A model generated the notes under the pieces. The model saw nothing but the letters and a program-made list of their open reading frames with translations. It did no database searches and had not been told where the DNA came from. A stretch of DNA of 64,000 bases, taken from IMG/VR virus record IMGVR_UViG_3300027763_000026, one strand, 5' to 3'. This document shows positions 4,705-52,372 of the stretch, one piece after another. The position numbers were made by a program, and so were the translations under genes. Positions within the stretch are counted from its first letter, which is position 1. Every line of letters begins with the position of its first letter. This stretch comes from a virus.

Positions 4705-5235
4705 ATGATTCCAGAACTACAAAAAAAATATATAGAAAATTTTGAAAAAAATCTTATATATTCCTCTTTAAAAGATCTTCAAGTCCTTCAGTCTAAAAAT
4801 ATAGATAATACAGCAAATTTAGGAGTTTTTGCAAAAAGAAATTTTTCAAAAAATGAATTAATAGAATGTAGTCCAATTTTTCAATTAGGTTGGCGATCAA
4901 ACTATCATCGTGACCCTGTGATAAGTCAATATGCGTTCACTCATAATCGTCAATGTCAATGCAATGAATGTAAAACTCATGGATTCAATTATTATATCTC
5001 TTTGGGGTATGGCTCTATTTACAATAGCAAAAAAGATCGTGATGCAGATTGGTTCGTATCTCCAAAGCATAGAGCTTGGTTCTTGGTCGCTGTAAAAGAT
5101 ATAAAAAGAGGAAATGAAATATTTACTTACTACGGAGACGGTTATGATATGAACCGCTATCAAAATAAATCAAGTACGCCTAAATCAATAGAAGATATAG
5201 ATTGGTCAAAGATACCTTTAACACCAACAAAATAA
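4705..5235 (+). CDS. SET-domain protein (putative lysine methyltransferase)
   Basis: LGVFAKRNFSKNELIECSP, GYGSIYN, VAVKDIKRGNEIFTYYG match the SET motifs. Confidence 0.8.
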   Translation: MIPELQKKYIENFEKNLIYSSLKDLQVLQSKNIDNTANLGVFAKRNFSKNELIECSPIFQLGWRSNYHRDPVISQYAFTHNRQCQCNECKTHGFNYYISLGYGSIYNSKKDRDADWFVSPKHRAWFLVAVKDIKRGNEIFTYYGDGYDMNRYQNKSSTPKSIEDIDWSKIPLTPTK

Positions 5236-7445: not shown

Positions 7446-7832
7446 GGGCCCGTACTGGTTTCGATTTTAAAGAAATAAATTGAAATGCAAGTGGAGGTTG
7501 AATCGAGGACTCCTTAAAAAGTTTCAATTTATATTAACTGCCAAAACAGCAAAATATAAAGGTCATATTTCAGCAAGAGTTTCTCTTGTTGAGATGACCG
7601 CTTCTGTAGCTTAAGTTACAGCGTGATACCCTTGACACATCTATTGGGATATTGCGTAATTAGATGTCTTATTATTAGTAGTTTTTTTATTCTATTAATA
7701 TTAAGTATCAAAAATAAAATCGCTGAGTATGTTTGCTCTTTATCTATACAAAGCTAAAAACAAAAAGAACTAAACTTGTAGTATTTTAATTTAGATTTTT
7801 AAAAGACAGAGGTTCAATTCCTCTCGGGTCCA
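7446..7832 (+). ncRNA. ssrA: tmRNA (CCA not encoded)
   Basis: 5' GGGCCCGTACTGGTTTCGA; acceptor stem GGGCCCG/CGGGTCC-A with the G3-U70 Ala identity pair; T arm AGAGG-TTCAATT-CCTCT; internal tag ORF. Confidence 0.92.
7540..7614 (+). other. tmRNA tag reading frame: (A)AKTAKYKGHISARVSLVEMTASVA*
   Basis: TTAACT upstream of resume codon GCC at 7540; TAA at 7612-7614; hydrophobic Ala-ending C terminus. Confidence 0.7.
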
Positions 7833-19969: not shown

Positions 19970-20713
19970 ATGAAAAAAGTTTCCTATTGTACAGTATGCT
20001 ATGGTAGATTATGGCAATTAGCGTTTACATTAAAATCTAATTTAGATAACCTTAAAGAAGACGAAGAGCTTGTTCTGGTAGACTATAATAGTCCAGATGA
20101 TACTATGATTTTTGTTTTAGGCACAAAAACTTTTAAAAAATATATAGAGGAAGAAAAATTAAAATTTATAAAAGTCTTAGATGTAAAAGAGTATAATTGT
20201 CCAAAATCTAAAAATATAGCTCATAGGTTAGGCTCTGGAGAAATTTTAGTAAATTTAGATGTGGATAATTTTTTATTAGGAATGCGGGAAGAAATCGATA
20301 AAGCTTTTAATAAAAATAAAAATAGTTTACTTCATATGTATTTTGAACCACAAGGAGGGTCTTTTGGCAGGATAGCTTTGACAAAAAGTAATTTTTATAA
20401 ATTGGGCGGTTACGATGAAGATCTATTGGAACATTCACATCAGGATACAGACTTAATCAATAGAGCAAAGGCATTGGGCATGACCTATGGCCTTCGTCCT
20501 TTAGAATCTGAAGTTATAGCTAATAACCTTTATGCGAAAAATAGATACTTAAGAGAGGACTGGTTTAGCATGCAACAAAAAAATAGAAAAATTAGTCAAG
20601 AAAATATTATGAATGGAAAATTTGTAGCTAATAAGAGTAAAGGTTGGGGAGAGTGTAAAATCATAGAGAACTACGATAAGGATATTATAAATTTAAAAGC
20701 TATACGCCCATAA
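19970..20713 (+). CDS. GT-A glycosyltransferase (GT2/GT7-like)
   Basis: LVDYNSPD, NLDVD, GGYDEDL...QDTDL. Confidence 0.75.
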   Translation: MKKVSYCTVCYGRLWQLAFTLKSNLDNLKEDEELVLVDYNSPDDTMIFVLGTKTFKKYIEEEKLKFIKVLDVKEYNCPKSKNIAHRLGSGEILVNLDVDNFLLGMREEIDKAFNKNKNSLLHMYFEPQGGSFGRIALTKSNFYKLGGYDEDLLEHSHQDTDLINRAKALGMTYGLRPLESEVIANNLYAKNRYLREDWFSMQQKNRKISQENIMNGKFVANKSKGWGECKIIENYDKDIINLKAIRP

Positions 20714-20734
20714 AACTAGTGTAATCAATATATC

Positions 20735-21598
20735 ATGGAAATTGATTTTAGCAACGATATTCAAGCAGCTAAAAAAGGCAAAGCACCACTTAATAAACCA
20801 TTTCGTCTTCCTTCTGGGAGCAAAAAGAAATTTGGTGTTTATGTCAAAAACGATAAAGGTAATATTGTTAAGGTTACTTTCGGCGATCCAAATATGTCTA
20901 TCAAAAGAGATAATCCCGAAAGACGCAAAGCTTACAGAGCAAGACACGGTTGCGATAATCCTGGTCCAAAGTACAAAGCCAATTATTGGAGTTGCAAAAT
21001 GTGGAGCGCAAAACCAGTTAGTAAAATCGCTGGGAGTTGCGGAAAGCCTAACTGCGGTTCAGTTCAAAATGAAGAAGAAGTCACTTTGGAAATAGATGTT
21101 CAAGCTAAGAATAAAGGTCTTTGGTACAACATCCAACAAAAGAAAAAAAGAATGGGTAAAAATTATCGTCCAGCAAAACCAGGGTCGAAAGATCGACCAA
21201 CCCAAGAAGCTCTTAAAAAAGCACAAGGCTCTGATTATGAAAATGAGAATTATGAATGGGATGGAGAAACAGAATTTGATCAAAATGAATTTTTAAAATT
21301 AGATCCGACACTTGCTCAAGTAGCAGAACTCCCAGATGATCCAGAAGAAATGAAATATCATACGGAAGATACAGCTGATATGGCTCTTGCTCAATTTGAA
21401 GTCATAAGAGATTCTGCGATTGAAATTATTGAAATGTTAAAAAATAATCCAGAAGCAGCATTAGAAATAACAGAAGGATGGGTGACGAATAAAATAGCTT
21501 TAATTGAAGATTATATTGTAACAGTAAAAGATTATATTAAATATCCTTTAGAGGAAATGCAAGCTAAACAAATTGAAGGTGAAAAAAACATTAAGTAA
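20735..21598 (+). CDS. Multi-domain basic/acidic phage protein, possible head-internal polyprotein
   Basis: KVTFGDPNMSIKRDNPERRKAYRARHGC...YWSCKMW domain and GLWYNIQQKKKR domain; repeated xQA junctions; AGTGTAA upstream. Confidence 0.6.
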   Translation: MEIDFSNDIQAAKKGKAPLNKPFRLPSGSKKKFGVYVKNDKGNIVKVTFGDPNMSIKRDNPERRKAYRARHGCDNPGPKYKANYWSCKMWSAKPVSKIAGSCGKPNCGSVQNEEEVTLEIDVQAKNKGLWYNIQQKKKRMGKNYRPAKPGSKDRPTQEALKKAQGSDYENENYEWDGETEFDQNEFLKLDPTLAQVAELPDDPEEMKYHTEDTADMALAQFEVIRDSAIEIIEMLKNNPEAALEITEGWVTNKIALIEDYIVTVKDYIKYPLEEMQAKQIEGEKNIK

Positions 21599-22109
21599 AC
21601 TCTGGAACTGGAAAACAAAAACATTACTTGTTGGGGTTGGATTAATCGTATCTTGGGTCGCTTGTTTTAAAATTGGTTTTGAACTTAAAAAATACAATAA
21701 CATAACTAACCTTCCAAACTCTTGTTTTGTTGATGCTATGATTTATGCTTCTCAATGTAATCTCTTATTAGAAACAAACAATGATATATGGAACAATGTT
21801 TATGGTTTTACATTTTACTACAAAGACGACATAGATAATATAATTGGTCATGCAGTTTGTGTTTTTGAGTATAAGAATAACTTATGGATCTATGATCCAA
21901 ACTGGGGAACATCACCAATATGTCAAATTGGAAATAAAAAAGAATATAGGGAAAAAATAAAGTTGTACATCAATAAAACTTATCCTATAATAGTAGTAGA
22001 GGATTTTATGTTAAATGATTGGACATACGTCCAAAAAATAAAGAAAAATAAAATGAACAAAATCTATAAAGAGGTGTCTATACATTTAGATGAAAACAAG
22101 AAGGAGTAA
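21573..22109 (+). CDS. Membrane-anchored papain/transglutaminase-like Cys-His-Asp protein
   Basis: TM segment, then NSCFVD...GHAVCVF...WIYDPN. Confidence 0.6.
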   Translation: MKVKKTLSKLWNWKTKTLLVGVGLIVSWVACFKIGFELKKYNNITNLPNSCFVDAMIYASQCNLLLETNNDIWNNVYGFTFYYKDDIDNIIGHAVCVFEYKNNLWIYDPNWGTSPICQIGNKKEYREKIKLYINKTYPIIVVEDFMLNDWTYVQKIKKNKMNKIYKEVSIHLDENKKE

Positions 22110-22118
22110 ACTAATAAT

Positions 22119-22850
22119 ATGAAAATAAACCTACTAAAAGGGTTACTAATAAGCACAGCCGCAAAATTAATTGCGGCTTTTTTAATGCTCAGTAGCGGTC
22201 AGTCAAAAGCTGCATTGACCGTAATCAATGGTGACTTTAGCGATCTGACAGGCCTAACTTATGTGGGTGACGTCTGGTATTCTGGCGTTCCCACTGGCTG
22301 GAACACTGACTTTCCAAACACAATTTACACAGTCAAGTATACTGGTATCACTAATGGCACTTATGATTACGTTGCTAATATTTCTCAGCTCACCTCTACA
22401 TCTCCTAATTTTTATGCTCTTTATCAAAGCGTAGGAACTACAGATTATACAGGTGATGTTACTGTAAAATTTGATTTAACAAATATTAATGGTGGTGGAT
22501 ATGATGTTGGTGTTGCAATCTTTCAAGGTCCCAATTTTAACACTCTACTTGCGAATCGTAGCATTCAGGATGTGTTCCCAGATGCTAACGGTGTTCCTCA
22601 AAACGGTGTTGGAACCTTTGAGCTCACAGCATTGAATGTCGCATCTGGAAGCTTACTTCAGATCGCTTTTTGGACAACTGGAGGCACTCCAGGCTTGGAC
22701 AATGTCTCGATAATCCCTGAACCCACAACATTAGATTTAATCTCACTACCAGTAACAGCAGGTGCTTACATGGTGGATATGATCTCAAAGAATATCTACA
22801 CATGTGGAATAAACCCTAGAAAATTTAATGCTCTAACCATTGTGTACTAA
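22119..22850 (+). CDS. PEP-CTERM-like exported protein with degenerate anchor
   Basis: Signal peptide ending SKA-A; GLDNVSIIPEPTTL. Confidence 0.75.
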   Translation: MKINLLKGLLISTAAKLIAAFLMLSSGQSKAALTVINGDFSDLTGLTYVGDVWYSGVPTGWNTDFPNTIYTVKYTGITNGTYDYVANISQLTSTSPNFYALYQSVGTTDYTGDVTVKFDLTNINGGGYDVGVAIFQGPNFNTLLANRSIQDVFPDANGVPQNGVGTFELTALNVASGSLLQIAFWTTGGTPGLDNVSIIPEPTTLDLISLPVTAGAYMVDMISKNIYTCGINPRKFNALTIVY

Positions 22851-22923
22851 TTTATGAACAAACCAACAAACATAATAAAGAAGGCATTGAGCTTGATTGC
22901 CGCTGCTTTCATGACAACCGCAG
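22710..22923 (+). repeat. Degenerate direct repeat, copy A (PEP tail + intergenic + signal peptide); copy B is 23571-23783
   Basis: Shared blocks acaacattagattt, caaagaatat, taaaccctaNaaaattt, aaccaacaaacataat, attgccgctgctttcat. Confidence 0.85.
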
Positions 22924-23705
22924 GTAATCTGTATAGTGTATCATATTTGTATCAAGATGACTTTAGCGTCAATGCTGGGGCATTGAACGGGCGCGCTACT
23001 GCTGCAGGGTTCGGCAATTGGACCAACGCTGATGGCGCGTTCCAAGTCGGAAGCGATATGATTACTATCAACTCAAACACTCCTGTTGATTACCACTCAG
23101 CGTCGTTCTCGCTTCCCACACTGGGAGTCACCGACATTCTCTCGCTCAGTATTACAGTTCGCCCCTCTGGACCACTCTTCACAGGAATTGGTTTTAATCC
23201 GAACCCTGCCGCATACCTAACCCAGTCTGGATATGCTTGGGTTTATTACGAAGGATTGGGCGCAGCTAATCCGAACATTCAGATTTTTCAAGGTCCAAGT
23301 ACCGCAGGAGCGGTTTACGCAGCACCACTGACCCACCCGACTCTTAATTTTGACCCATCTCTCGCGACAACATTTGAATTTACTTACTCTGCTTCCGCCA
23401 AAACGCTCTCGCTACTGGCATCGAATGGGAGCAACTCGTCCACTCTCCTGAACCAACTCAATGTGAGCACAATGCCGCTGGAAGCTTTCAGTAATTTTTC
23501 CTTGCAGTTCCAAGGTCAGACTCTAGATACAGACTTCTATCCCGCTCATGTTGATCAATTGAGTGTTTCTATTATTCCTGAACCTACAACATTAGATTTG
23601 ATCTCTTTACCAGTAAAAGCGTGTTTTTACATAGCATGTAAAAGTGAGTCTCTACAAAGTAGACATTATCGCAAAGAATATTTAAGCAAATGGATTAAAC
23701 CCTAA
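22854..23705 (+). CDS. PEP-CTERM-like exported protein with GC-rich central domain and degenerate anchor
   Basis: Signal MNKPTNIIKKALSLIAAAF; YQDDFS...; VDQLSVSIIPEPTTL. Confidence 0.75.
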   Translation: MNKPTNIIKKALSLIAAAFMTTAGNLYSVSYLYQDDFSVNAGALNGRATAAGFGNWTNADGAFQVGSDMITINSNTPVDYHSASFSLPTLGVTDILSLSITVRPSGPLFTGIGFNPNPAAYLTQSGYAWVYYEGLGAANPNIQIFQGPSTAGAVYAAPLTHPTLNFDPSLATTFEFTYSASAKTLSLLASNGSNSSTLLNQLNVSTMPLEAFSNFSLQFQGQTLDTDFYPAHVDQLSVSIIPEPTTLDLISLPVKACFYIACKSESLQSRHYRKEYLSKWIKP

Positions 23706-23783
23706 AAAATTTTATGAAAAAACCAACAAACATAATCAAGAAAGCTCTGAGCTTCATTGCCGCTGCTTTCATCGCAACCGCAG
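23571..23783 (+). repeat. Degenerate direct repeat, copy B
   Basis: Aligns by eye with 22710-22923 (213 vs 214 bp). Confidence 0.85.
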
Positions 23784-25732
23784 CCTCAGATGCCCAAGCA
23801 GTAGTGTTCTTATGGAACAACACTGGTACCAATTGGACATCACCTGCCAGTTGGACCAATGGAGTGCAACCTGCATCCACTAGTTCCAGCGCCACCACAG
23901 ATGAAATTACATTTGGTAATTTTGGAGCAAGTAACAATACTGTTGTATTAACCTCTACAAGATCAGCAAAAAACATAACATTCCTAACAAACGCAAACCC
24001 ATATTTAATCAATAGTTTTAATGGCGTTCAAACACTATCATCTAGTGGAGGAATTACAAATAATTCTACTGCTACTCAAACATTTAATATATTAATAGAA
24101 AATGCTAACGCTAATAACACTTGGTTTCAAACAGCAGGAGGTTCATTAATATTTAATAATATAGCTTCGCTAACCACCGCTTCATCTGCTACATCTAGAA
24201 CTCTAACTTTAGCAGGAGATGGTGCATTCACATTTAATAATGAATTAAAACAAGGTGGCACATCTACTGCTGGTAAAGTTATATATACTGGAGGTGGAAG
24301 TGTTACATTTAATGGAACCAATACTTTAGGAGGTGGTTTTGATATTACAGGAGGCGGTACTGTTAATGTTAATGGCGGTACTGGATTAGGTACAGGTTTA
24401 ATAACACTTGGAGGAGCAAGCGGTACAACTAATGCGCCAAAACTTATAGTTAATACAGCCAATGGGTTATCTGTCGCCAATAGTTTAAAAGGATCAACAA
24501 GTCTTTCTACCATGGGAACATTAGATCTAGCAGGATCTAATTCTGCTGCGGTTACCACTTATGTTATGAATCAATATCAAGGTAACAATATGAATTTTAC
24601 CAATCATGGTGGATACAAGACATTGCTACAGTTTACTAATTCTGCTAGTACATTGACTGCATCTACAGGTTCTAGTGGTGGTAGAAGATTGTTTAACAAT
24701 AGTACTAATTTAATTGTACAGTTTGATGGTTCATTAGATATTGGCGGAACAGTTGCAGATAATAGTCTTGTTGGCGGTGTGGGCGATTTCCTTTTTAAAG
24801 GATCTTTACTCAATACAGGAAGTGCACTCAGAGGTTTAACAAAGTCAGGAACTGGAACAGTAACTTTACAAGCAGTTAATTCATACAATGGAGACACTAC
24901 GATACAAGATGGTATATTTGTTGTTGATACTGCTGGTTCTATTGCTTCTAGCGCTGCTATAGTAACAGGAGGTACTTTGCAAGTTAAAGGTATCGCTGGA
25001 GGAGTCAATGTTAATAGTGGAAGATTACTTGTAGATACTGGTGGTAGAGTTGGAACTACAACAGTAGGAGGTGGTACTCTATTAGTTTCTGGTACAGCAG
25101 GAACTACCACAGTAAACTCTGGAACTGCTACAGTAAATGTAGGTGGAACAGTTGGAAGCACAACAATCAATGGAAGTTTGCTATCAGTAAATGGAAACGC
25201 AGGAGATGTTTTAGTAAATACAGGAGGTACATTAGGTGGCTCTGGTAGTGTGCAAGGTTTGACTTTAAATGGTGGTACTGTGGCCCCTGGCAATAGTCCT
25301 GGTCTGCTAACTGCTTATGAGTTAAACGGAAGCAATGGAAGATTCCAATTCCAATTAGGCGCACCAACTACCAGAGGTACTACCTATGATGCTATTAATG
25401 TAAGCACTTTACTAACTTTAGGAGCTAGTACATCATGGACATTTGAAACATTAGATAATTACTCATTTCAAATGAATGATAGTTACGATTTATTTAATTT
25501 TGCGTCAATCGAAGCATCTGCATTTGATGTAAATACATTACTAGCAGCATTACCTAATTTAGATACTGCTAATTCAAATTTGAAATGGGACGCTAATAGT
25601 TTTACCACAGATGGAGTAGTAAATGTTATTCCAGAACCTTCTACATTATCACTTCTATTAGGTGGTGCTAGTGTTTTAATAGGTCTTAGAATTGTGAGGA
25701 GAAACAAATGCAAACTCCCAACACGCTTTTAA
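23714..25732 (+). CDS. PEP-CTERM protein with autotransporter-associated beta-strand repeats
   Basis: Signal peptide; WNNTGTNWTSPASW; GLTKSGTGTVTL..NSYNGDTTI; VAPGNSPG; VIPEPST-TM-RIVRR. Confidence 0.9.
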   Translation: MKKPTNIIKKALSFIAAAFIATAASDAQAVVFLWNNTGTNWTSPASWTNGVQPASTSSSATTDEITFGNFGASNNTVVLTSTRSAKNITFLTNANPYLINSFNGVQTLSSSGGITNNSTATQTFNILIENANANNTWFQTAGGSLIFNNIASLTTASSATSRTLTLAGDGAFTFNNELKQGGTSTAGKVIYTGGGSVTFNGTNTLGGGFDITGGGTVNVNGGTGLGTGLITLGGASGTTNAPKLIVNTANGLSVANSLKGSTSLSTMGTLDLAGSNSAAVTTYVMNQYQGNNMNFTNHGGYKTLLQFTNSASTLTASTGSSGGRRLFNNSTNLIVQFDGSLDIGGTVADNSLVGGVGDFLFKGSLLNTGSALRGLTKSGTGTVTLQAVNSYNGDTTIQDGIFVVDTAGSIASSAAIVTGGTLQVKGIAGGVNVNSGRLLVDTGGRVGTTTVGGGTLLVSGTAGTTTVNSGTATVNVGGTVGSTTINGSLLSVNGNAGDVLVNTGGTLGGSGSVQGLTLNGGTVAPGNSPGLLTAYELNGSNGRFQFQLGAPTTRGTTYDAINVSTLLTLGASTSWTFETLDNYSFQMNDSYDLFNFASIEASAFDVNTLLAALPNLDTANSNLKWDANSFTTDGVVNVIPEPSTLSLLLGGASVLIGLRIVRRNKCKLPTRF

Positions 25733-26367
25733 AACATCCAAGACTATTAAAAATTTTTGGTTTTACATTAGTTGAAATGGCAGTTGTAATAGTTATAATG
25801 GCATTTGTAATGAGCTTATCGTTCTCTGCTTTTGGCGCAGTCAAACGTAAATCATCTCAAGCTGCTTGTGCTTCAAACATGAAACAAGTTGGTACAAGTA
25901 TTTTGTTATTTGCAGCAGAAAATGATGGCTGGTTGCCTCCAGGTCCAGATGGTCAAACAATTAATACATTCATTAGCGATAGTAGATTTGGTGGCACAAC
26001 TCAAAATGTGGTGGATAAATCTAACATAGAATATTATCTCACTAATTATATTCCTGTTACATATACAGGTAAAAAAAAGAAAGCAAATACTGTGTTTAGT
26101 TGTCCTGCACACAACGAACAACATCCTACCATTTGGAAAAGAGGATCTTGTTTTGGAGGAGCAGGTGGCGATTATGGCATAGAAAATTCTAAAAAAATAT
26201 TAGCATTGGATACAAATGATTATTTCTTAGTTGATTTTACCAAAGCTTTTACTAATCATTCTAGTGGCGCTTTAGATAAAACAATTAAAAATCCACATGG
26301 AAGCACAAGAAATCTGTTAAGAACAGATGGTAGTGTAATATTAGAATCTGACACAAAAGCCAGATAG
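25708..26367 (+). CDS. Prepilin-type N-terminal cleavage/methylation protein with H-X9-DG motif (PVC type)
   Basis: GFTLVEM, CASNMKQVG...LP, HGSTRNLLRTDG. Confidence 0.88.
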   Translation: MQTPNTLLKHPRLLKIFGFTLVEMAVVIVIMAFVMSLSFSAFGAVKRKSSQAACASNMKQVGTSILLFAAENDGWLPPGPDGQTINTFISDSRFGGTTQNVVDKSNIEYYLTNYIPVTYTGKKKKANTVFSCPAHNEQHPTIWKRGSCFGGAGGDYGIENSKKILALDTNDYFLVDFTKAFTNHSSGALDKTIKNPHGSTRNLLRTDGSVILESDTKAR

Positions 26368-26376
26368 AATAAAGCA

Positions 26377-26643
26377 ATGGATAATCACATGAGAAACTTA
26401 TTATTAAGTAATTATGAAAAAAGTCTTCCCTCAAAAAGAGATACAGAAGCCTTCATAAGTAATTTCCATCAATATAGGGCTAAGAAGAAAGCCCAAGAAA
26501 AAACTCATTATGCTTTAATTTTTGCTTGTGTTCTTATATTAAGTATGATAGGATCAATAATAGCTAAACAAACTAAAAACAATTTAGATATACAAACAGC
26601 AAGTGGAACAGAAAAATGCAATACACAAGTCATGGAAAAGTAG
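26377..26643 (+). CDS. Single-TM hypothetical protein
   Basis: ORF track; TM YALIFACVLILSMIGSII. Confidence 0.55.
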   Translation: MDNHMRNLLLSNYEKSLPSKRDTEAFISNFHQYRAKKKAQEKTHYALIFACVLILSMIGSIIAKQTKNNLDIQTASGTEKCNTQVMEK

Positions 26644-26834
26644 TAGTCTTTGAAGGAAACGTTGGTGAAGTTTCTACTTGGATCAAAAAACATGTTGGAG
26701 ATCACGACACAGTTAGTTTAAAGGATTACTTTAAAGATGAAGTTTTTGGAGTTCATAAAGTTGGAGAAGAGAAGTATAGATACTATTATCAATGCTTAGG
26801 AAAAGGTAGATATTCTATTTTTACAATGCAATGA
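26616..26834 (+). CDS. Hypothetical protein
   Basis: ORF track; overlaps neighbours operon-style. Confidence 0.45.
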   Translation: MQYTSHGKVVVFEGNVGEVSTWIKKHVGDHDTVSLKDYFKDEVFGVHKVGEEKYRYYYQCLGKGRYSIFTMQ

Positions 26835-27157
26835 ATAAGATACCTTTTATCGTGGGCATTTGTATTGCAATTAGTATTTTTTATACAGTTTATAGTCCTC
26901 ATCCGTTTTTAGTAAAACAACAAATAGATAATTATGGCATGGATTTTGAATATGTAACAGATGAAGGTTCTTGCTTTACCCAGAGCGCAGAACCTATTGG
27001 CCATGATAGCCATAAATATATTTTAAGTCTAGGCAAACCTGCAAAGCCTACAAATTCAGAAGAACCTTTGTATGTGATGATAGGTTATACCATGAAACAA
27101 GTACGTTTAAAAAATAAATCCAATGTTTTCCAAACCCCAATATATAAAACCTTATGA
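26831..27157 (+). CDS. Membrane-anchored hypothetical protein
   Basis: N-terminal TM/signal; ATGA coupling. Confidence 0.55.
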   Translation: MNKIPFIVGICIAISIFYTVYSPHPFLVKQQIDNYGMDFEYVTDEGSCFTQSAEPIGHDSHKYILSLGKPAKPTNSEEPLYVMIGYTMKQVRLKNKSNVFQTPIYKTL

Positions 27158-27486
27158 AAAAAACAATAATACTATTAGCGGCGTTTCTATTAACAACCTA
27201 TTCTTATACAGAAGACCAAATAAGAATTAAAATAACTAAAAATGAAAAAGGTGAAATGATGCTTAATGTATCAGGTCATAAAAGCCCAGTAGCTCTAGAA
27301 GTTAATGGAATATCCAGACAAGTAGAAGTTAATGAAAGTGATGTTAACATGGAAAAAGAATTTCAATTCTCTACTTTTAGTTCTCCAGACACAGCTTCTG
27401 GAGCTTCGTCTACTCCAACCGATTCTCAATATAAAGTGCCTCCAGTATTATCAAACGGAGTTCCGTATCAAGCAACTCCAATTTAA
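27154..27486 (+). CDS. Secreted hypothetical protein
   Basis: Signal peptide MKKTIILLAAFLLTTYSYT. Confidence 0.6.
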   Translation: MKKTIILLAAFLLTTYSYTEDQIRIKITKNEKGEMMLNVSGHKSPVALEVNGISRQVEVNESDVNMEKEFQFSTFSSPDTASGASSTPTDSQYKVPPVLSNGVPYQATPI

Positions 27487-27504
27487 TCTTGTGTAAGCCT
27501 ATGT

Positions 27505-27771
27505 ATGCTACTTAAAATCAAAAATTGGTGGGCTAATTTAAAATCCTATGATAAGTTCTTTTTTATCTCATTTGTACCAGCGATGCTTTTCACACTTTGG
27601 GGGCTAAGTGATCTTTACATTAATTACTTTGATTTATTAAGTAAGGAAGATCACCTTCAATTCTTTCTTAGAGTATTCTTTCCAGTATCATTAGCTACTT
27701 TCATTACGGTTCTAGAACATAATAAGAGAAAAAAGTTAATTAAAGATATCAAAACCTATTTAAATAACTAG
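27505..27771 (+). CDS. Two-TM hypothetical membrane protein
   Basis: Two hydrophobic helices and a basic tail; TGTGTAA 8 nt upstream. Confidence 0.55.
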   Translation: MLLKIKNWWANLKSYDKFFFISFVPAMLFTLWGLSDLYINYFDLLSKEDHLQFFLRVFFPVSLATFITVLEHNKRKKLIKDIKTYLNN

Positions 27772-27776
27772 TGTAA
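27770..27776 (+). promoter_or_regulatory. WGTGTAA motif (representative copy), putative late promoter
   Basis: AGTGTAA 8 nt before ATG 27785; the same motif recurs 8-12 nt before at least 7 other starts. Confidence 0.6.
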
Positions 27777-27784
27777 TATAATTT

Positions 27785-30700
27785 ATGGCTTTTATAGTTA
27801 AAAGAGATGCTCTACCATCACCATTACTTAATGGGCTACTCGCTTATTGGAAACTGAATACAACTAGCTGGTTGGATTCAAGTGAAAATCAGAATACCCT
27901 TTCTGTTACAAATGGTCTAAGTTCAAATATTACAATAGAAACTGGCAAAATAACAAATGCAACAAGATTTAATTATAATAAAACATTTCTTGAGAAATCA
28001 GATTTTCAATTTCCAAACTATTGGACTCAGTCATTTTGGGTAAAAATTATTAGTGACAATGTTACTGATGATAATTCAGAGGGGGAGGGAACATACCCAT
28101 GCTTCTTTGATTCTGGATATATTTCTGGAGCAAGAATAGCTTTTGTTGGTGGAGAACATAATTGTAGGAATAATTGGATTTATTCAAACCCACCTGGAGA
28201 TAATTATGGTCAAGTTTTTTCATTGGAATTAAATGAGTGGTACCATGTTTGCGTTACACAAGATTCATCTGGATTAAAATGGTATGTTAATGGATCATTA
28301 TATATTACGGATGAAGGGGCTTTAACAGAAAGAAGTGGAACTGGATTAGCTATAGGAGCCCAAACCGCAGGAAATGATCCAGAGTCACGTTTTTATGCAG
28401 CTCAAGGAGATTACAGTATTTGCGAATACGGAGTCTGGAATCGAGCATTAACTCAATCAGAAATAAAACAACTTTATAACTCTGGGTCTGGAATAACCTA
28501 CCCATTTTATTCTTCTCTTTTACTTCATATGGATGGAGCAAATGGGTCAACAAATTTTACAGATAGTTCTATAAATGATCTTCCAATTACGGTCAATGCA
28601 AATCCTCAGATAAGCACAGCTCAAAGTAAATTTGGAGGAAGCTCTGCTTATTTTGATGGAGATGGAAGTTATTTAGACGTTTCTAATTTGCCTAGCGATT
28701 ATCTAAGTCAAGATTTTACTATTGAAGCTTGGGTTTGGGTAGATGACTCTAAAATTAATTCTTGTTTATTTAATACATTTCCACATAACTCTTTCGGAGT
28801 TAGTTTAAATAGAGAATATACAGGAGGTAGAACGTCTTTTGGTGTTGGTGATGGTGTTAATTGGGATGTAGTAATTGAAAGTGATACTCCATTATCTTTC
28901 AATACATGGCAGCATATTGCTTTTGTAAGAAGTAATAATACTATAACTTTATATGAGAATGGAATAGCTCGTGCTTCTACTAATTATATGCCAACTGGAT
29001 TTAGTACTTCTTGCAGAATTGGATCAATTACATGGGATGGTGGTTTAAATGGCGAAGAATATAAAGGATATATGGACGAATTTAGAATTATTAAATACGC
29101 CGCTTACACATCAAACTTTACTCCACCAACTCAACCATTTGAATTTTCTGGTGCACGAAGTTTAATAATTAAAAAAAATACAACCTTCAAAATTCCAAGA
29201 ACGTTTGAATTCATCCTCACCTCAAGAGCCTTTAACTCTTCTGGTAACCAAGTCGGCGAAGAAAATACAGGGGATATACCCCAAGGATGGATGAATAACC
29301 AAAACTGTACCTCTGTTACCTTTGCAAACAACAACAGCGTGACGAGTATTGGAAGTTATGCGTTTGATGGTACCAGCCTAGCCACAGCCACCATACCGAA
29401 TAGCGTTACAAGTATTGGGGATTATGCGTTCAAGAATTGTCTAACCAGCGTCACCTTTGCGGCTCCTTCTAGCCTAACTAGCATTGGGAATTATGCGTTT
29501 AAGTGTTCCAACCTAACCAGCATAACCATTCCAAATAGCGTAACCAGCATTGGCGCTCATTCATTTGAGCAATGTACTAGCCTCGCCACAGTCACTTTGC
29601 CAACAAATATAAACTTTACGAGTATTGGTGCCAATTCATTCAAATCTTGCACCAGCCTAACCAGCATCACAATCCCCAACAGCGTAACGAGCATTGGGAA
29701 TTATGCGTTTGATGGTACCAGCCTAACCAGCATCACTATTCCTAACAGCGTAACGAGCATTGGTAGTTATGCGTTCCATCAATGCAGCAGTCTAACCAGC
29801 ATCACCATTCCAAGCAGCGTCTTAAGTATTGGGGGCTATGCGTTTCAAAATTGCTCTGCCCTAGCCACAGCTACTATTGGTAACAGCGTAACTAGCATTG
29901 GAAATTATATGTTCCAAAATTGCTCTAGCCTAGCCACAGTCACCTTTACACCAAATTCTAGCGTTACAAGCATTGGTGATTATGCGTTTGCTGGCACTAT
30001 TTTTAATTCCATTACAATCCCCAATAATGTGAATAGTATCGGGAACAGAGCGTTCGAAGGTTGCGGTCTAGCCAGCATCACTATTCCCAATAACGTAATA
30101 AGCATTGGGGCTTATGCGTTCTCTGGTTGCACCAGCCTAGCCACAGTCACCATTGGAACAAGTGTAACGACTCTTGGGGATGCTGTATTCAAAAACTGCT
30201 CTAGCCTAACCAGCATTACTATCCCAAATACCGTAAATAGCATTCCATATTATGCGTTCAGAGGCACCAACCTAGGCACAGTAACCTTTACACCAACTTC
30301 TACCGTAACAAGCATTGGGAGTTATGCGTTTGCTTACCTGCCGCTAAGTAGCGTTACTATACCCAACAGCGTCTTAAGTATTGGGGTTCGTGCGTTCTTT
30401 AGTTGCTCCAGCCTAAACACACTCACTATTGGCACTAGCGTAACAACCATTGGAAGTTCTGCGTTTGCTTATACAGCCCTAACCAATCTTACTATCCCAA
30501 ACAGCGTTTTAACCATTGAGCCTGAAGCGTTTAATCAATGCAACCTAAACACACTCACTATTGGCACTAGCGTAACAACCATTGGAAGTTCTGCGTTTGC
30601 TTATTCAGCATTAACTAGTGTTACTATCCCAAGCAGTGTTACAACTATTGGAGAGAATGCATTTAAAGAGAATTCAATTAGCTCATTGACCATAATAGGC

Positions 30701-31585
30701 AACAATCTTAGAACCATTGGTGGTTTTGCTCGCAATCAAATTGCCTCACTAACCATACCCAATGGTGTGACAACCATTGGCAGTAGTGCATTCTATTACA
30801 ATTCAATTGATTCACTAACCATACCCAGTAGTGTGATAACCATTGGCAGTGGTGCATTTTCTTACAATGAAATGACCACATTGACCATAGGAAGCAGTGT
30901 CATAACCATTGGGCAGAACGCATTTTATTACAATCTACTTACCTCGCTAACCATACCCAACGGTGTTCAGACCATTGGCGATTTTGCATTCGCTTATAAT
31001 CAAATTGGCGGCCCATTAACCATACCCAACAGCGTCCAAAATATTGGAAGTCATGCGTTTGCTGACAATTCAATTTCATCTGTGACCATAAGCAACACTG
31101 CGACTAGCATTGGAACTTATGCGTTTAGTAACAATTTATTAACTTCAGTAATTATACCAAACAGTGTTTTAACCATTGGGAATGGCGCATTTTATAACAA
31201 TCGACTTGCCTCAGTGACCATAGGTAACAGTCTCCAAGTCATTAGTGTTGGTGCATTTAGTACCAATTTATTAACTTCAGTGACTATACCCAGCAACGTA
31301 AATAGCATTGGCAATTACGCATTTAATAACAATTCATTAACTTCAGTGACTATACCAAGTACTGTTTTAACCATTGGGCAGGGCGCATTTAGAAATAATT
31401 CTTCACTTACCACAGTGAACTGCTACACAACACGAACAGCTTTTGTTGCTAATAATGCGTTTTTCAATGTTGGTGCATTGACCATTCATGCAAGAATATC
31501 AGATAACACTTGGACTGCCGCACCTAGCCCTGGCGTAACGTTTCAAGGAAAGACTGGCGTTATAATCATCAAAGATTTGACTTAA
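27785..31585 (+). CDS. Two LamG/concanavalin-A-like domains plus BspA-type leucine-rich repeats (putative virion adhesin)
   Basis: LLAYWKLN, WYHVCVT, WQHIAFVR, GYMDEFRI; many LTSITIPNSVTSIGxxAF repeats. Confidence 0.9.
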   Translation: MAFIVKRDALPSPLLNGLLAYWKLNTTSWLDSSENQNTLSVTNGLSSNITIETGKITNATRFNYNKTFLEKSDFQFPNYWTQSFWVKIISDNVTDDNSEGEGTYPCFFDSGYISGARIAFVGGEHNCRNNWIYSNPPGDNYGQVFSLELNEWYHVCVTQDSSGLKWYVNGSLYITDEGALTERSGTGLAIGAQTAGNDPESRFYAAQGDYSICEYGVWNRALTQSEIKQLYNSGSGITYPFYSSLLLHMDGANGSTNFTDSSINDLPITVNANPQISTAQSKFGGSSAYFDGDGSYLDVSNLPSDYLSQDFTIEAWVWVDDSKINSCLFNTFPHNSFGVSLNREYTGGRTSFGVGDGVNWDVVIESDTPLSFNTWQHIAFVRSNNTITLYENGIARASTNYMPTGFSTSCRIGSITWDGGLNGEEYKGYMDEFRIIKYAAYTSNFTPPTQPFEFSGARSLIIKKNTTFKIPRTFEFILTSRAFNSSGNQVGEENTGDIPQGWMNNQNCTSVTFANNNSVTSIGSYAFDGTSLATATIPNSVTSIGDYAFKNCLTSVTFAAPSSLTSIGNYAFKCSNLTSITIPNSVTSIGAHSFEQCTSLATVTLPTNINFTSIGANSFKSCTSLTSITIPNSVTSIGNYAFDGTSLTSITIPNSVTSIGSYAFHQCSSLTSITIPSSVLSIGGYAFQNCSALATATIGNSVTSIGNYMFQNCSSLATVTFTPNSSVTSIGDYAFAGTIFNSITIPNNVNSIGNRAFEGCGLASITIPNNVISIGAYAFSGCTSLATVTIGTSVTTLGDAVFKNCSSLTSITIPNTVNSIPYYAFRGTNLGTVTFTPTSTVTSIGSYAFAYLPLSSVTIPNSVLSIGVRAFFSCSSLNTLTIGTSVTTIGSSAFAYTALTNLTIPNSVLTIEPEAFNQCNLNTLTIGTSVTTIGSSAFAYSALTSVTIPSSVTTIGENAFKENSISSLTIIGNNLRTIGGFARNQIASLTIPNGVTTIGSSAFYYNSIDSLTIPSSVITIGSGAFSYNEMTTLTIGSSVITIGQNAFYYNLLTSLTIPNGVQTIGDFAFAYNQIGGPLTIPNSVQNIGSHAFADNSISSVTISNTATSIGTYAFSNNLLTSVIIPNSVLTIGNGAFYNNRLASVTIGNSLQVISVGAFSTNLLTSVTIPSNVNSIGNYAFNNNSLTSVTIPSTVLTIGQGAFRNNSSLTTVNCYTTRTAFVANNAFFNVGALTIHARISDNTWTAAPSPGVTFQGKTGVIIIKDLT
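30412..30604 (+). repeat. Exact 61-bp direct repeat (30412-30472 and 30544-30604) within the LRR array
   Basis: cctaaacacactcactattggcactagcgtaacaaccattggaagttctgcgtttgcttat twice, 132 bp apart. Confidence 0.9.
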
Positions 31586-31597
31586 TTTTCATTTTAA

Positions 31598-31626
31598 TTG
31601 ACAAAATATATTATAGAAAATATAAT
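31598..31626 (+). promoter_or_regulatory. Sigma-70 promoter, leaderless
   Basis: TTGACA-17-TATAAT-6-ATG(31633). Confidence 0.85.
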
Positions 31627-31632
31627 ATATAT

Positions 31633-32433
31633 ATGAGTAAAACAATTCACTTTGTATCTGGGCTGCCTAGAGCAGGATCAACATTATTAATGAATCTTTT
31701 AGCACAAAATCCTAAAGTTCATTCAACCGCCACTAGTGGACTTCATGAAATAGGTTATATTGCTAGACAATTTCATAGCACAGAAGAGTTTAAGACTATC
31801 CCCAATCCAAGAGATGGCGAGACTTTATTCTATGACTACGTGAAGGGTGGATGTGAAAATGCTTTTAATAGATTAACAGATAGACCTATCGTAGCTGATA
31901 AATGCCGTTCTTGGGTTGGGCATCTTGATATGCTCTTTGCTATTTGGCCTAACGCAAAAGTGCTAGTGCCAGTTCGTGATATGCGTGCGATCCTATCTTC
32001 TTTTGAAAAAAAATGGCAAAAGCATCCATTCCCATTTACTGGTGTTGAAAAACAAAATCCTCAAAATTGGACTACTGTAGAGAAGAGAACTCAAGGCTGG
32101 CTTAACATTCCTCCGCTTGGAATTGCTGTTGAAAGATTATCTGACGCGGTTAAAAGATACAAAGATAAATTACATTTTGTTAATTTTGAAAACCTTACAG
32201 AAAATCCAAAAGAAGCCATGGATGGAGTATGGGATTATTTAGAATTAAAAGCTCCAAAGCATGATTTTAATAACGTAGAACAGTACACAACAGAGCATGA
32301 AGCTGGTTGGCCATATGGAGATCATACAATTCGCAATAAAGTAGAACCTCTAGAAAAAGATTGGAACAAAGTTCTAGGAAAAGAATTTTCAGAACAAATT
32401 AGTCAAAGTTTCAAGTGGATTAATCAATTATAA
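31633..32433 (+). CDS. Sulfotransferase family protein
   Basis: SGLPRAGSTLL, DKCR, VRDMRAILSS, FENL. Confidence 0.85.
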   Translation: MSKTIHFVSGLPRAGSTLLMNLLAQNPKVHSTATSGLHEIGYIARQFHSTEEFKTIPNPRDGETLFYDYVKGGCENAFNRLTDRPIVADKCRSWVGHLDMLFAIWPNAKVLVPVRDMRAILSSFEKKWQKHPFPFTGVEKQNPQNWTTVEKRTQGWLNIPPLGIAVERLSDAVKRYKDKLHFVNFENLTENPKEAMDGVWDYLELKAPKHDFNNVEQYTTEHEAGWPYGDHTIRNKVEPLEKDWNKVLGKEFSEQISQSFKWINQL

Positions 32434-47125: not shown

Positions 47126-47464
47126 GTGAGTAATCATAAACTTTGCCAATTTATAGTTAAAAAATATGTAAAAGGTACTATCAATTGGCCAAGGGAAATC
47201 AAAATTGCTCAAAGATTAATTAAAAAATTCAAATCTTTTGATTTTTGGGATAACTTACAAGAGCTAGGCTCACCTCCTCCTTCATTAGCTTGGTTCTTAA
47301 AATCAGAGGGCAAGGCTTTCTTACTAAAGGAATATGAATCTTTTAATATGAATTTAAATAAAAAAGAAATACCCCTTAGTCAAAATAGAACGGGAGAAGA
47401 TAAAAAAGTTTGCCAAAAACCTAAAACCCTGTTAGAATTTATAAGATATGGGAAGAAAACCTAA
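47126..47464 (+). CDS. Hypothetical protein
   Basis: ORF track, GTG start, coupled to recA. Confidence 0.55.
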   Translation: MSNHKLCQFIVKKYVKGTINWPREIKIAQRLIKKFKSFDFWDNLQELGSPPPSLAWFLKSEGKAFLLKEYESFNMNLNKKEIPLSQNRTGEDKKVCQKPKTLLEFIRYGKKT

Positions 47465-48593
47465 AGAACAAGATCCAGTACAAGATACTGGGCCGAGCGC
47501 AAAAGACAGATTGTCTTCATTTTTAAAAGAAAATAAAGAAGACCATTATAATTATGAAGAAGAGGTTTATTACAAAGTCTCTACGGGAAGTCTGAATTTG
47601 GATATTGCGACGAGTGGAGGTTTATGTCCAGGATTACATAGATTTATTGGAATGAATGAAGGCGGTAAAACCTCAGAAGCACTAGAGGTAATGAAGAACT
47701 TCCTTAAAACCGTAAAAGATTCTAAAGCCCTACTATTTAAAGCTGAAGGAAGATTAAGTAAAGAAATTAAAGAAAGGTCGGGAATAAAGTTCGTAACTTC
47801 TGCTGAAGAATGGGAAGACGGAACATGCTTCGTTTTTGAATGTAATATTTTTGAAACAGTTTCTGAACTTATGAAAGACCTCATTCAAAATAATGATGAA
47901 GGCAAAAGATATATGTTCGTGTTGGACTCGGTTGACGGCTTAATGACTAAAGGGGATAGCCTTAAGAGTATGACAGAAGCAACAAAAGTCGCAGGAGGCG
48001 CGGTAATATCTTCCATGCTTATGAAAAAAATATCTTTAGCCCTTTCTAAGCGCGGACACATGGCCATATTTATTAGTCAGGTTCGTTCGGATATTAAACT
48101 CGATCCATATGCAGCTAATAAAGATATCCGCCAAACGACCGCAACTGGCGGAAACGCTCTTTTACATTTTGCTAACTGGATACTTGAATTTGAACCAAAA
48201 TTTGGAAAAGACCTTATATTAGAAAAACCAAACGAAAGATACGATCAAGTCAAGAATAAAATCATTGGTCATAATGTTAAAATCATCATTAAAAAATCCA
48301 CTAATGAAACTACAAATTCAAAAGTCCAATACCCGATTAAGTATGGCAGAAAAGATGGTTCTTCAGTATGGAGAGAATATGAGGTTATCGACCAAATTCT
48401 TTCTTGGGAGTTCGCATCTGCCAAAGGTGCATGGGTTACTTTTACAGATGAGATTATAGAAGAGCTTAAAAAAGAAAATTTAGAATTAAAAAAACAACAC
48501 CAAGGAGTAGACAATCTTAGGTCTTATCTAGAAGACAACAAGGCGGTTGTAGATTTCTTTTATAGTAAATTTATTAATACTTTAGCTTTATGA
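47448..48593 (+). CDS. recA: RecA/UvsX-like recombinase
   Basis: STGSLNLD, variant Walker A GMNEGGKT, VLDSV, FISQVR, GGNAL. Confidence 0.85.
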   Translation: MGRKPKEQDPVQDTGPSAKDRLSSFLKENKEDHYNYEEEVYYKVSTGSLNLDIATSGGLCPGLHRFIGMNEGGKTSEALEVMKNFLKTVKDSKALLFKAEGRLSKEIKERSGIKFVTSAEEWEDGTCFVFECNIFETVSELMKDLIQNNDEGKRYMFVLDSVDGLMTKGDSLKSMTEATKVAGGAVISSMLMKKISLALSKRGHMAIFISQVRSDIKLDPYAANKDIRQTTATGGNALLHFANWILEFEPKFGKDLILEKPNERYDQVKNKIIGHNVKIIIKKSTNETTNSKVQYPIKYGRKDGSSVWREYEVIDQILSWEFASAKGAWVTFTDEIIEELKKENLELKKQHQGVDNLRSYLEDNKAVVDFFYSKFINTLAL

Positions 48594-51479: not shown

Positions 51480-52372
51480 ACGTCTTTCAAGTCCTTACGG
51501 ATTTAGGATATAAATTGAAAGACCATGGTAAAGAATATCGCGCAAGACCTTTATATAGAGATAGCGACAACGACACAGTATTAAAAATAGAAAAAAATAG
51601 CGGTAACTGGTTCGATTTTAAACAGAACATAAGTGGCGATTTAAATTCATTAGTTAAAATAACTTTAAAATTAGATGACGTTGATGAAGCTAAACAATGG
51701 CTTAAGAATAAAAATTTCATATCTCAAGTCGCTTCCGATTTAGAAAAGCCTTTAATTAAATCTTCGAAAAGTTTTGATATAAATATTTTAGATAGACTAG
51801 AGAATCGACACGACTATTGGATCAATAGAAATATAGATCAAGAAACTATATCTCAATTTAAAGGTGGCGTAGCGCACGCTGGCAAAATGAAGAATAGGTA
51901 TGTTTTTCCTATTTTCAATTTAAAAAATAATATCATAGGGTTCTCTGGCAGAGACGTTACAAACATGTCTAAGATAAAATGGAAACATCTTGGGGAAAAA
52001 AGCGATTTTTTATATCCATTATTTTTAAATCATTCTATATTAGAGCAACAAAGGGAAATTATACTGGTAGAGAGTGTAGGAGATATGCTAAATCTATGGC
52101 AAAATGATATTAAAAATGTTTTAGTTACTTTCGGCACGAGCCTTAGCTTGCCCATACTAAATCATATGCTTAAATTAGATATTAAAAAAATATATATCAG
52201 CTTGAATAATGATTCAAATAAAAATATGGCAGGGAATATTGGTGCAGAGAAAATCCATTCTAGGCTCAAAAGATATTTTGATCAACGACAATTTAAAATT
52301 GCACTACCTATTAAAAAAGATTTTGGAGAGATGACAAGGGAGGAGATACTTCAATGGAAAAAAACTCTTTAA
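51467..52372 (+). CDS. DnaG-like TOPRIM primase
   Basis: RYVFPI...GFSGR, KWKH, LVESVGD, NND...G; start set to ATG 51467. Confidence 0.8.
   Translation: MEELNVFQVLTDLGYKLKDHGKEYRARPLYRDSDNDTVLKIEKNSGNWFDFKQNISGDLNSLVKITLKLDDVDEAKQWLKNKNFISQVASDLEKPLIKSSKSFDINILDRLENRHDYWINRNIDQETISQFKGGVAHAGKMKNRYVFPIFNLKNNIIGFSGRDVTNMSKIKWKHLGEKSDFLYPLFLNHSILEQQREIILVESVGDMLNLWQNDIKNVLVTFGTSLSLPILNHMLKLDIKKIYISLNNDSNKNMAGNIGAEKIHSRLKRYFDQRQFKIALPIKKDFGEMTREEILQWKKTL

Follow-up and report, generated by a model that had tools for sequence, protein, structure and literature searches.

The virus record IMGVR_UViG_3300027763_000026 of IMG/VR supplies a stretch of 64,000 nucleotides (hereafter the window) in which three consecutive genes, g1, g2 and g3, lie head to tail, each composed of a signal-peptide-like leader, a passenger domain and a tail containing a PEP motif. 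An earlier note, made from the letters of the window, had read them as three tandem exported PEP genes in which a constant AT-rich scaffold of conserved ends receives host-derived passengers by recombination, and had raised the idea of cassette capture. The analyses described below suggest that the locus is probably a variable accessory array of the moron type, which holds host-derived passengers, evolves by recombination and encodes exported products.

The genes are separated by gaps of 3 nt (g1/g2) and 8 nt (g2/g3), and two direct repeats span tail, spacer and following leader (Table 1). As the earlier note described them, these are degenerate units of about 214 bp; they are 83.5% identical over 188 ungapped columns, are interrupted by indels of 27 nt and 26 nt, and have 18 11-mers in common; 1000 shuffles gave 2 at most. 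Gap-free blocks of 69-88 nt each pair 22703-22771 with 23564-23632 (81%), 22752-22839 with 23638-23725 (72%) and 22851-22923 with 23711-23783 (89%). The g1-g2-g3 arrangement is not an assembly artefact, because contigs of two other samples match the window over 22514-27260 at 100% and over 22871-25811 at 99.5%. A role of the repeat as a promoter was rejected, as promoter and terminator scan counts are no higher than in shuffles and none fall in the junctions. At 22157-22178 (+), within the coding sequence of the g1 leader (residues AAKLIAAF), a perfect GC-rich hairpin of 8 bp precedes a T run, and the terminator scan flags it on both strands.

Table 1. Coordinates of the array and of associated features in the window (aa, amino acids).
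Feature	Position	Strand	Description
g178	21573..22109	+	conserved 178-aa phage gene, upstream array anchor; 80-88% protein identity in L018, L020, L022, L032, L035
g1	22119..22850	+	243-aa open reading frame: leader L1 22119-22211, passenger P1 22212-22709, tail A 22710-22850
Repeat copy 1	22703..22923	+	PEP region, tail A, 3-nt spacer, g2 leader L2
g2	22854..23705	+	283-aa open reading frame: leader L2 22854-22940, passenger P2 22941-23570, tail B 23571-23705
L2-P2-tail B-spacer-L2 segment, 932 bp	22863..23794	+	in window; missing from close relatives L022, L032
Repeat copy 2	23564..23783	+	PEP region, tail B, 8-nt spacer, g3 leader L2
g3	23714..25732	+	672-aa open reading frame: leader L2 23714-23800, beta-helix-type passenger P3 23801-25624, canonical PEP-CTERM tail 25625-25732
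Prepilin-type (N-methylation motif) gene, 219 aa	25708..26367	+	overlaps g3 end; PF07963 21.6 vs 21.2; TIGR02532 18 vs 16.3
Four small conserved genes (88, 72, 108, 110 aa)	26377..27486	+	downstream array anchor; follow array in L001, L002, L018, L035, L038
UvsX-like recombinase	47448-48593	+	PHROG 97
Exonuclease	52354-53304	+	PHROG 69

Leaders, Folds and Tails of the Array Proteins

The leaders of all three proteins resemble signal peptides by inspection, with a lysine-rich start, a hydrophobic core and a small-x-small site (SKA/A in g1, AQA/V in g3), and AlphaFold places an N-terminal helix at residues 7-24 of g1 and 4-24 of g2. All three proteins carry an I/V-I-P-E-P motif near the C-terminus, at a distance from the end of 46 residues in g1, 44 in g2 and 35 in g3. 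Such a motif belongs to the substrates of the PEP-CTERM/exosortase system (TIGR02595, PF07589; Haft et al. 2006, as described in PMC3237569), in which the tag is a 'sequence suffix' on otherwise unrelated proteins and the domain is defined by three parts, namely the motif, a transmembrane helix and a basic cluster (PMC3237569).

Open reading frames and PEP motifs are present in all three genes as the earlier note had them, but g3 alone matches PEP-CTERM models, scoring 19.0 with TIGR02595 PEP_CTERM (cut-off 16) and 18.6 with PF07589, under the cut-off of 20.7. The g1 and g2 proteins have no PEP-CTERM match at E 0.1 (NCBIfam) or E 0.01 (Pfam) and belong to no family of Pfam, NCBIfam or PHROG; bacterial homologues score 27.1 and 28.6 bits with the Pfam PEP-CTERM model, above its cut-off of 20.7. 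The tails of g1 and g2 keep PEP-T-T-L-D-L-I, then depart from the canonical form and extend about 25 residues further. The best 15-residue Kyte-Doolittle mean is 2.11 in g3, 1.55-1.71 in host tails, 1.43 in tail A and 1.49 in tail B, and the hydrophobic stretches of tails A and B are interrupted by D, P and K. After this stretch g3 has a basic cluster, RIVRRNK; tail A has none, and tail B has scattered K/R/H only. Because the three-part definition places a basic cluster directly after the hydrophobic stretch, and theirs have none there, g1 and g2 were not filed as PEP-CTERM members; judged by its sequence, g3 alone of the three is a canonical PEP-CTERM protein.

The g3 passenger contains autotransporter-associated beta-strand repeats (PATR PF12951, 31.6 bits versus 27; TIGR02601, 33.9 versus 19.85). 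The g1 and g2 proteins were modelled with AlphaFold on alignments of 52-61 sequences. The g2 model (pLDDT 83) has a jelly roll of the ConA-like/L-type lectin kind, for which Foldseek returns ERGIC-53 and legume lectins at E 2.5e-8 to 1e-7, with target-normalised TM up to 0.65 and sequence identity of 11-15%. The g1 model (pLDDT 75) is a beta sandwich similar to those of carbohydrate-binding module (CBM) family 4 and the Stig cyclases, with Foldseek matches to Stig cyclases, CBM4 and a porphyran-binding CBM at E 4e-7 to 1e-5 and target-normalised TM of 0.57-0.70. Taken together, these models predict that g1 and g2 are proteins of a sugar-binding type, CBM-like and lectin-like, respectively. The earlier note held the mature domains to be unrelated to each other; BLASTP of P1 versus P2 finds no significant similarity beyond the PEP-tail region (76% over 25 aa).

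Host Origin of the g1 and g2 Passengers

Comparison with bacterial genes indicates that the passengers of g1 and g2 are evidently derived from host genes for PEP-CTERM surface proteins, and that the g1 family has evidently undergone several independent exchanges with host alleles, with crossovers in conserved blocks at both passenger ends. P1 is 78% identical in protein sequence to a verified bacterial gene on contig L014 and 82-85% identical, over the passenger, to other canonical-tail homologues. Sliding DNA identity of the window g1 to phage L018 is 87-98% in flank and leader, 31-68% in the passenger and 85-90% in the tail, versus 33-51% in the leader, 70-92% in the passenger and 20-47% in the tail when it is compared with bacterial L014. 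The phage-type copy on L033, with leader L2 and tail A, has a passenger 92-100% identical in DNA to that of bacterial L040 over about 400 nt, and the GC content at third codon positions (GC3) of both is 0.46. The 5' third of the L033 passenger is more phage-like than the remainder, and its switch to the phage tail occurs within about 10 nt 5' of the PEP codons, where a AFWTTGGTPGLDNVSI block kept in all copies ends. P0125, on an 8.9-kb contig and with 11 member sequences, has a trimmed passenger identical to that of L033 on the tree.

A tree of g1-family passengers, from which leader and tail had been removed, disperses tail-A rows among the canonical ones over four or more positions, several groupings having SH-aLRT values of 98-100, and tail-A passengers require at least 4-5 changes of tail type. 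Forcing tail-A monophyly costs a delta lnL of 304 (approximately unbiased (AU) test, p 2.7e-38). Verified bacterial g1 copies lie on contigs of 55-56% GC beside a 973-aa PATR protein and glycoside hydrolase (GH) genes of GH43 or GH106, and the neighbours of bacterial homologues on such contigs are GH43, GH106, sulfatase and MFS genes. On L014 (837-5215), L040 and L041 the g1 homologue is directly followed by the 973-aa PATR protein, which mirrors the phage pair g1-g3, and L014 has an additional 189-aa g1 paralogue after the g1 homologue. The PATR protein was rejected as the direct source of g3, with which it has only 35% identity over 127 aa.

P2 is 70-75% identical to bacterial PEP-CTERM proteins, the nearest canonical-tail proteins checked in alignment being 70-73% identical. 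One homologue (75%, BLASTP) is encoded between sulfatase and GH106-type genes on a 1.85-Mb contig of 56% GC, and homologues of g2 at 58-65% occur in named metagenome-assembled genomes (MAGs) from lakes, assigned to Methylacidiphilales, Chthoniobacterales, Akkermansiaceae and Planctomycetota. The phage-like rows of g2 are compatible with a single clade (AU p 0.53), so P2 may go back to one uptake and have since changed slots, leaders and tails.

Base composition bears on the same question. The window has 32% GC, and GC3 of its genes is 0.16-0.32, with g2 the exception at 0.42; the background, taken in 166-codon windows, is 0.246 (standard deviation 0.065). Leader, passenger and tail have GC3 of 0.32, 0.32 and 0.33 in g1, of 0.45, 0.46 and 0.20 in g2, and of 0.45, 0.17 and 0.17 in g3. 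The counts of G and C by which the earlier note had singled out the middle passenger (37/60 and 32/60, versus 17/60) are exact, and the rise in g2 is not an effect of amino-acid composition, because it is visible at third codon positions (0.46 in P2 versus the background). The raised GC of g3, by contrast, is an amino-acid effect, with GC at second codon positions of 0.52 and GC3 of 0.18. The proposal that leader L2 was captured from the host together with P2 draws on the two leaders being alignable and on the GC3 of L2; but L2 also heads g3 in many relatives, so that transfer could have run either way, and the proposal was set aside.

The earlier note's proposal of host-derived passengers therefore fits g1 and g2, which are closer to bacterial genes than to their phage paralogues, but not g3. 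The best 120 matches listed for g3 have 66-85% identity, many of them on contigs of 100-217 kb, and g3 looks like an old resident of phages, because its GC3 is at the phage background (0.17-0.18) and there is no close bacterial copy among the matches listed.

Reshuffling of Leaders, Passengers and Tails

Among about 15 related contigs, at least 10 array architectures of 2-4 genes each are found, built from about seven passenger types (Table 2). Leader and tail segments recur around different passengers, in keeping with the earlier note, but its constant AT-rich scaffold does not describe them, since several leaders and tails exist and GC3 is 0.45 in L2, 0.33 in tail A and 0.20 in tail B. There is no single fixed scaffold; at least four leaders and three tail types are combined.

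Table 2. Array architectures in the window and in related contigs. L with one digit, leader; P, passenger; TA and TB, tails A and B; canonical, full PEP-CTERM tail; L with three digits, contig.
Contig	Architecture	Remark
Window	g178-[L1 P1 TA]-[L2 P2 TB]-[L2 P3 canonical]-pilin-like
L022, L032	g178-[L1 P1 TA]-[L4 P3]
L035	g178-[L1 P2 TB]-[L4 P3 canonical]-g88
L012	[L1 P2 TB]-[L2 P3]
L001, L002, L003	[L1 P1' TA]-[L2 P2 TB]-[L4 P3 canonical]
L006	[L3 P1' TA]-[L2 P2 TB]-[L2 P1'' TA]-[L2 P3...]	one extra cassette
L017 = L023	[L3 P1 TA]-[L2 P4 canonical]-[L2 P3 canonical]-pilin-like	fourth passenger type in slot 2
L018	g176-[L1 P1''' TA]-[P3 canonical]
L013	[L1 P1 TA]-[L2 P2 canonical]
L037, L034	[L2 P1''' TA]-[L2-like P3']
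L036, L030	[L2 P2 TB]-[L2 P3]	without g1 upstream

L032 is collinear with the window at 92% as far as 22862, and collinearity resumes at 23795; the window therefore carries a 932-bp insertion consisting of L2, P2, tail B, spacer and L2. The 214-bp repeats of the window are the edges of this insertion and evidently the footprint of one reshuffling event. L001 repeats the tail part only, because its g3 has leader L4. Slot 1, within identical flanks, is occupied by L1-P1-tail A in L032 and by L1-P2-tail B in L035, the 5' crossover between P1 and P2 in this slot coinciding with a common 11-nt stretch that codes for D-F-S. Together these data indicate that leaders, passengers and tails have evidently been reshuffled among phages and among slots via common leader and tail DNA.

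The earlier note's recombination at conserved ends accordingly describes exchange among phages, which involves leader and tail DNA, but not exchange with hosts, whose crossovers lie inside the passenger-end blocks. Likewise, its expectation that related phages would have the same segments with different passengers is borne out in part: such cases are found, but L001 and L002 carry the same passengers in the same order.

Phage-Specific Tails in Place of the Host Anchor

In g1 and g2, phage-specific tails have evidently taken the place of the host membrane anchor. For the most part tails A and B consist of one DNA sequence that is translated in two reading frames after a 27-nt indel, and tail A occurs in the same type on many different passengers. 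Across seven copies of tail A, pN/pS is 0.24, with 46, 80 and 203 differences at the three codon positions, as compared with values of 4.0 and 0.9 in the shifted frames, and tail A is therefore a translated module of 46 aa under purifying selection. The proposal that tail A is frameshift debris was rejected, given purifying selection in its own frame. Tail B, of which four copies only were available, has pN/pS of 0.36, and one shifted frame scores equally well; as a selected module it is less clear than tail A, and frameshift debris stands as a possible reading of it.

Flanking Genes, Phage Context and Host

The array is bounded by conserved genes. The upstream gene g178, which has no Pfam or PHROG family match, directly precedes the first array gene in L018, L020, L022, L032 and L035 without exception. 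Downstream, the four anchor genes (26377-27486) have no Pfam family, and g88, which encodes 88 aa, has 88-90% DNA identity. The prepilin-type gene between array and downstream anchor, with a weak match to 'Verru_Chthon cassette protein D', is variable in this block, being present in the window, L017 and L038 and absent in L001, L018 and L035. Further downstream, a gene for a 1266-aa protein at 27785-31585 (+) contains two LamG-type domains and nine blocks of BspA-type leucine-rich repeats (LRRs). Its LRR region (especially 29135-30700), with GC3 of 0.40-0.47, is the only other stretch of the window above GC3 0.36 and may be another host-derived segment.

The window also encodes a class I ribonucleotide reductase, GMP-reductase/IMPDH-type and PurA-type enzymes, DnaB, a short DnaE, a primase, an exonuclease, a UvsX-like recombinase (PHROG matches for the last three) and many glycosyltransferases, as well as a transfer-messenger RNA (tmRNA), which ARAGORN places at 7446-7832 (+) with a tag peptide ending ...EMTASVA. 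A SET-domain protein is encoded at 4705-5235 (+; PF00856, 30.2 bits). No exosortase turned up among roughly 45 of the 61 larger window open reading frames scanned against Pfam, and profile scans of the genes at 19970-32433 revealed no integrase or site-specific recombinase families.

On L018, a 165-kb contig, the array has the flanking genes that it has in the window, and a large terminase gene (phrog_2, E 2e-23) and a PhoH gene are about 5 kb away. The g3 protein of the window is also recorded on a contig of 188,747 bp. Three IMG/VR contigs carry the array, as found by its junction DNA pattern; a search of IMG/VR with g2 peptide patterns gave no match. Seven further matches to the junction pattern, in IMG/VR phages of 24-40% GC, were set aside as chance matches in an unrelated gene, the peptide in L021, L024-L027 and L029, which are contigs of 24-25% GC, reading ...YKEYVEEWIKP... 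where tail B has ...RKEYLSKWIKP. A blastn comparison of the locus with GenBank phages yielded a single irrelevant match of 127 nt, and tblastn of g1, g2 and g3 gave none. The array-bearing clade comprises widespread freshwater phages of roughly 165-220 kb, the window phage being roughly 190 kb, and their hosts are most likely bacteria of the Verrucomicrobiota type, to judge from the homologues.

Weighing the Explanations

The account that we consider likely, that of a moron-type array of host-derived passengers, would operate as follows. Exchange with the host would proceed through ordinary homologous recombination in the conserved passenger-end blocks; general homologous recombination is suggested because a UvsX-like recombinase and an exonuclease are present, with no integrase among the array neighbours and no fixed site, and these two could be the phage's own general recombination functions that drive the exchanges. 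During infection the array proteins would be exported by the Sec pathway, g3 would be passed to the host exosortase for sorting, and g1 and g2, host-like lectin domains with altered tails, would act on the glycan or surface layer of the cell. One may speculate that, relative to the host surface proteins, they serve as decoys that lack the anchor or as dominant-negative copies; such a role would depend on likeness to the host protein and would explain the repeated re-matching of the phage copies to current host alleles. A bolder version, to which we give an outside chance, holds that the phage-specific tails are a new functional module, above all the 46-residue tail A, which is kept constant on at least five host lectin domains of independent acquisition. 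The module would turn an exosortase-anchored host protein into an unanchored decoy, an exosortase blocker or a dominant-negative copy, by which the phage would sabotage or re-dress the PEP-CTERM layer of its host, and to stay matched it would have to go on re-copying the current allele.

Several points weigh against the account of a host-derived, recombining array. The function of the array proteins is wholly inferred, and the host was assigned from the taxonomy of homologues rather than through CRISPR spacers or prophages. For individual events no direction is proven, and the lower GC3 of the host copies could reflect some flow from phage to host. The equation of a canonical tail with a bacterial gene was verified for L004, L007-L011, L014-L016, L040 and L041 only, and some canonical tails are phage-borne (L013 g2, L017 slot 2). 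Repeated capture is apparent for the g1 family only, since the g2 passenger fits a single acquisition, and for g3 no bacterial-type homologue was found among the best 120 matches listed. Furthermore, the tail-A group was defined after the data had been seen, and intragenic recombination violates the assumptions of the tree; the apparent polyphyly of the g1 family is nevertheless a very large effect. Finally, the contig with the most striking junction, L005, may be a product of chimeric assembly or of a very fresh capture of host DNA. In its positions 1-1655 a 5' part of phage type, identical to L012 (100%) for long stretches, is fused to a 3' part that resembles host DNA, in which a canonical tail up to 96% identical to MAG L007 is followed by 442 nt at 97.5% to host contig L004. 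As a chimera is possible, L005 was not used as proof of fresh capture.

Exchange that runs mainly from phage to host, with the phage array as a reservoir from which bacterial PEP-CTERM alleles are overwritten in abortive infections, would account for the GC3 of 0.46-0.50 in the bacterial g1 homologues (L014 837-1532, L040 6001-6723), whose neighbours have 0.64-0.65, and cyanophage psbA/psbD exchange does go both ways (PMC1484495). We nonetheless regard it as unlikely: the families are broad in bacteria, with the homologues at 58-65% in MAGs of the four groups named above, phage-type sequences nest within canonical-tail clades, it is the GC3 of the phage passengers that exceeds the phage background and not the reverse, and bacterial copies retain both the canonical tail and bacterial neighbours. 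A dedicated capture system of the kind that the earlier note envisaged would make the tail-leader repeat a specific recombination site for loading host domains, comparable to attC in integrons or to the conserved flanks of the silent pilS and vls cassettes. The repeat unit does occur one to three times per array and flanks different passengers, and conservation of the junction DNA extends to places where two frames are in use. This idea has become very doubtful, however, as neither a recombinase nor an att-like site points to such a system: the array neighbours (19970-32433) include no integrase or site-specific recombinase, breakpoints vary (at the leader/passenger border, inside the passenger and just before PEP), tail A behaves as a selected protein and not as a DNA site, and the phage has recombination genes of the general kind. 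Moreover, because host genes have no homology to the phage leader or tail, exchange with the host cannot use the repeat sites.

Tail fibres typically exchange domains at conserved linkers, and the array proteins could on that ground be parts of the virion, either glycan-binding decorations or receptor-binding modules, in which case the shuffling would be ordinary domain swapping of receptor-binding proteins. Their lectin/CBM-like folds also occur in phage fibres, and the CBA120 tailspike is among the weak fold matches. Yet signal-peptide-like leaders on all three proteins and the canonical membrane-anchored tail of g3 would take them out of the cytoplasm, where virions are assembled, their neighbours are genes for nucleotide metabolism and glycosyltransferases rather than a structural module, and no PHROG structural family is matched, all of which makes a virion role improbable. 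The idea that the array arose by tandem duplication and divergence within phages only, or by chimeric assembly of phage and host metagenome sequence, draws on the fact that repeats could arise by duplication and on L005, which looks as a chimera would. It is exceedingly improbable in view of the reproduction of the window arrangement at 99.5-100% in two other samples, the occurrence of different architectures on long contigs of 10.8 to 165 kb, the P0125 sequence with its 11 members, and passengers that are closer to bacterial genes than to each other, monophyly being rejected.

Relation to Known Systems and Significance

With PEP-CTERM substrates the array proteins have in common an N-terminal signal peptide, a variable passenger and a C-terminal PEP motif, the full three-part tail being found in g3 and in the bacterial homologues. 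They differ in being phage-borne, with no exosortase seen among the open reading frames scanned, and in that g1 and g2 keep PEP but have the anchor replaced by phage-specific tails of 41-43 residues that no hidden Markov model recognises. The closest documented process is the intragenic recombination of psbA and psbD between cyanophages and their hosts (Sullivan et al. 2006, PMC1484495; also Zeidner et al. 2005, cited in PMC1484495). In both cases a host-derived gene in a low-GC phage has intermediate and patchy GC, several independent acquisitions and mosaic tracts in common with host alleles. Of the features that mark the psbA type, the g1 family displays all three (high-identity host homologues, intermediate GC3 and polyphyly of the phage copies) and g2 the first two. 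Unlike psbA/psbD, the array encodes secreted, surface-type proteins, varies in copy number as a tandem array and contains chimeras with leaders and tails found only in phages, where the cyanophage genes are host-like over their whole length.

Phage tail-fibre mosaics and the Rhs/CDI polymorphic toxins with orphan modules are likewise systems in which conserved terminal segments permit module swapping. The array resembles them in its conserved ends, in the swapping of unrelated middle or end domains and in having arrays of alternative modules. It departs from them in that the predicted products are neither fibres nor toxins, the donor pool includes host chromosomal paralogues, and there are neither immunity genes nor silent, promoterless cassettes. 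From cassette systems of the integron type it is set apart by the lack of an adjacent integrase and by breakpoints that vary between loci. Llp of phage T5 is an envelope protein encoded by a moron and acting in superinfection exclusion; like morons of that type, the array would be non-essential, its products are predicted to be exported and would act on the host envelope, and its presence varies among relatives, but there is no homology to Llp, and the array proteins closely copy surface proteins of the host.

A host-derived phage accessory locus that evolves by recombination is known in kind. What is new is the unusual class of cargo, the replacement of the sorting anchor by a phage-specific tail and the unusually well resolved variation in array composition; the papers searched contain no description of a phage PEP-CTERM array. 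PEP-CTERM/exosortase sorting is widespread and has been little tested experimentally, and here a whole clade of abundant freshwater phages carries and edits proteins of the exosortase type. The locus records ongoing recombination between host and phage outside the photosynthesis genes of cyanophages, and the near-identical phage and host alleles tie an uncultured group of phages of roughly 190 kb to hosts of the Verrucomicrobiota type. If the decoy-tail reading were true, it would constitute an arms-race mechanism described for no phage. The same passenger with canonical anchor, tail A or tail B provides a natural experiment on the role of the PEP-CTERM tail and on what a phage gains by replacing it.

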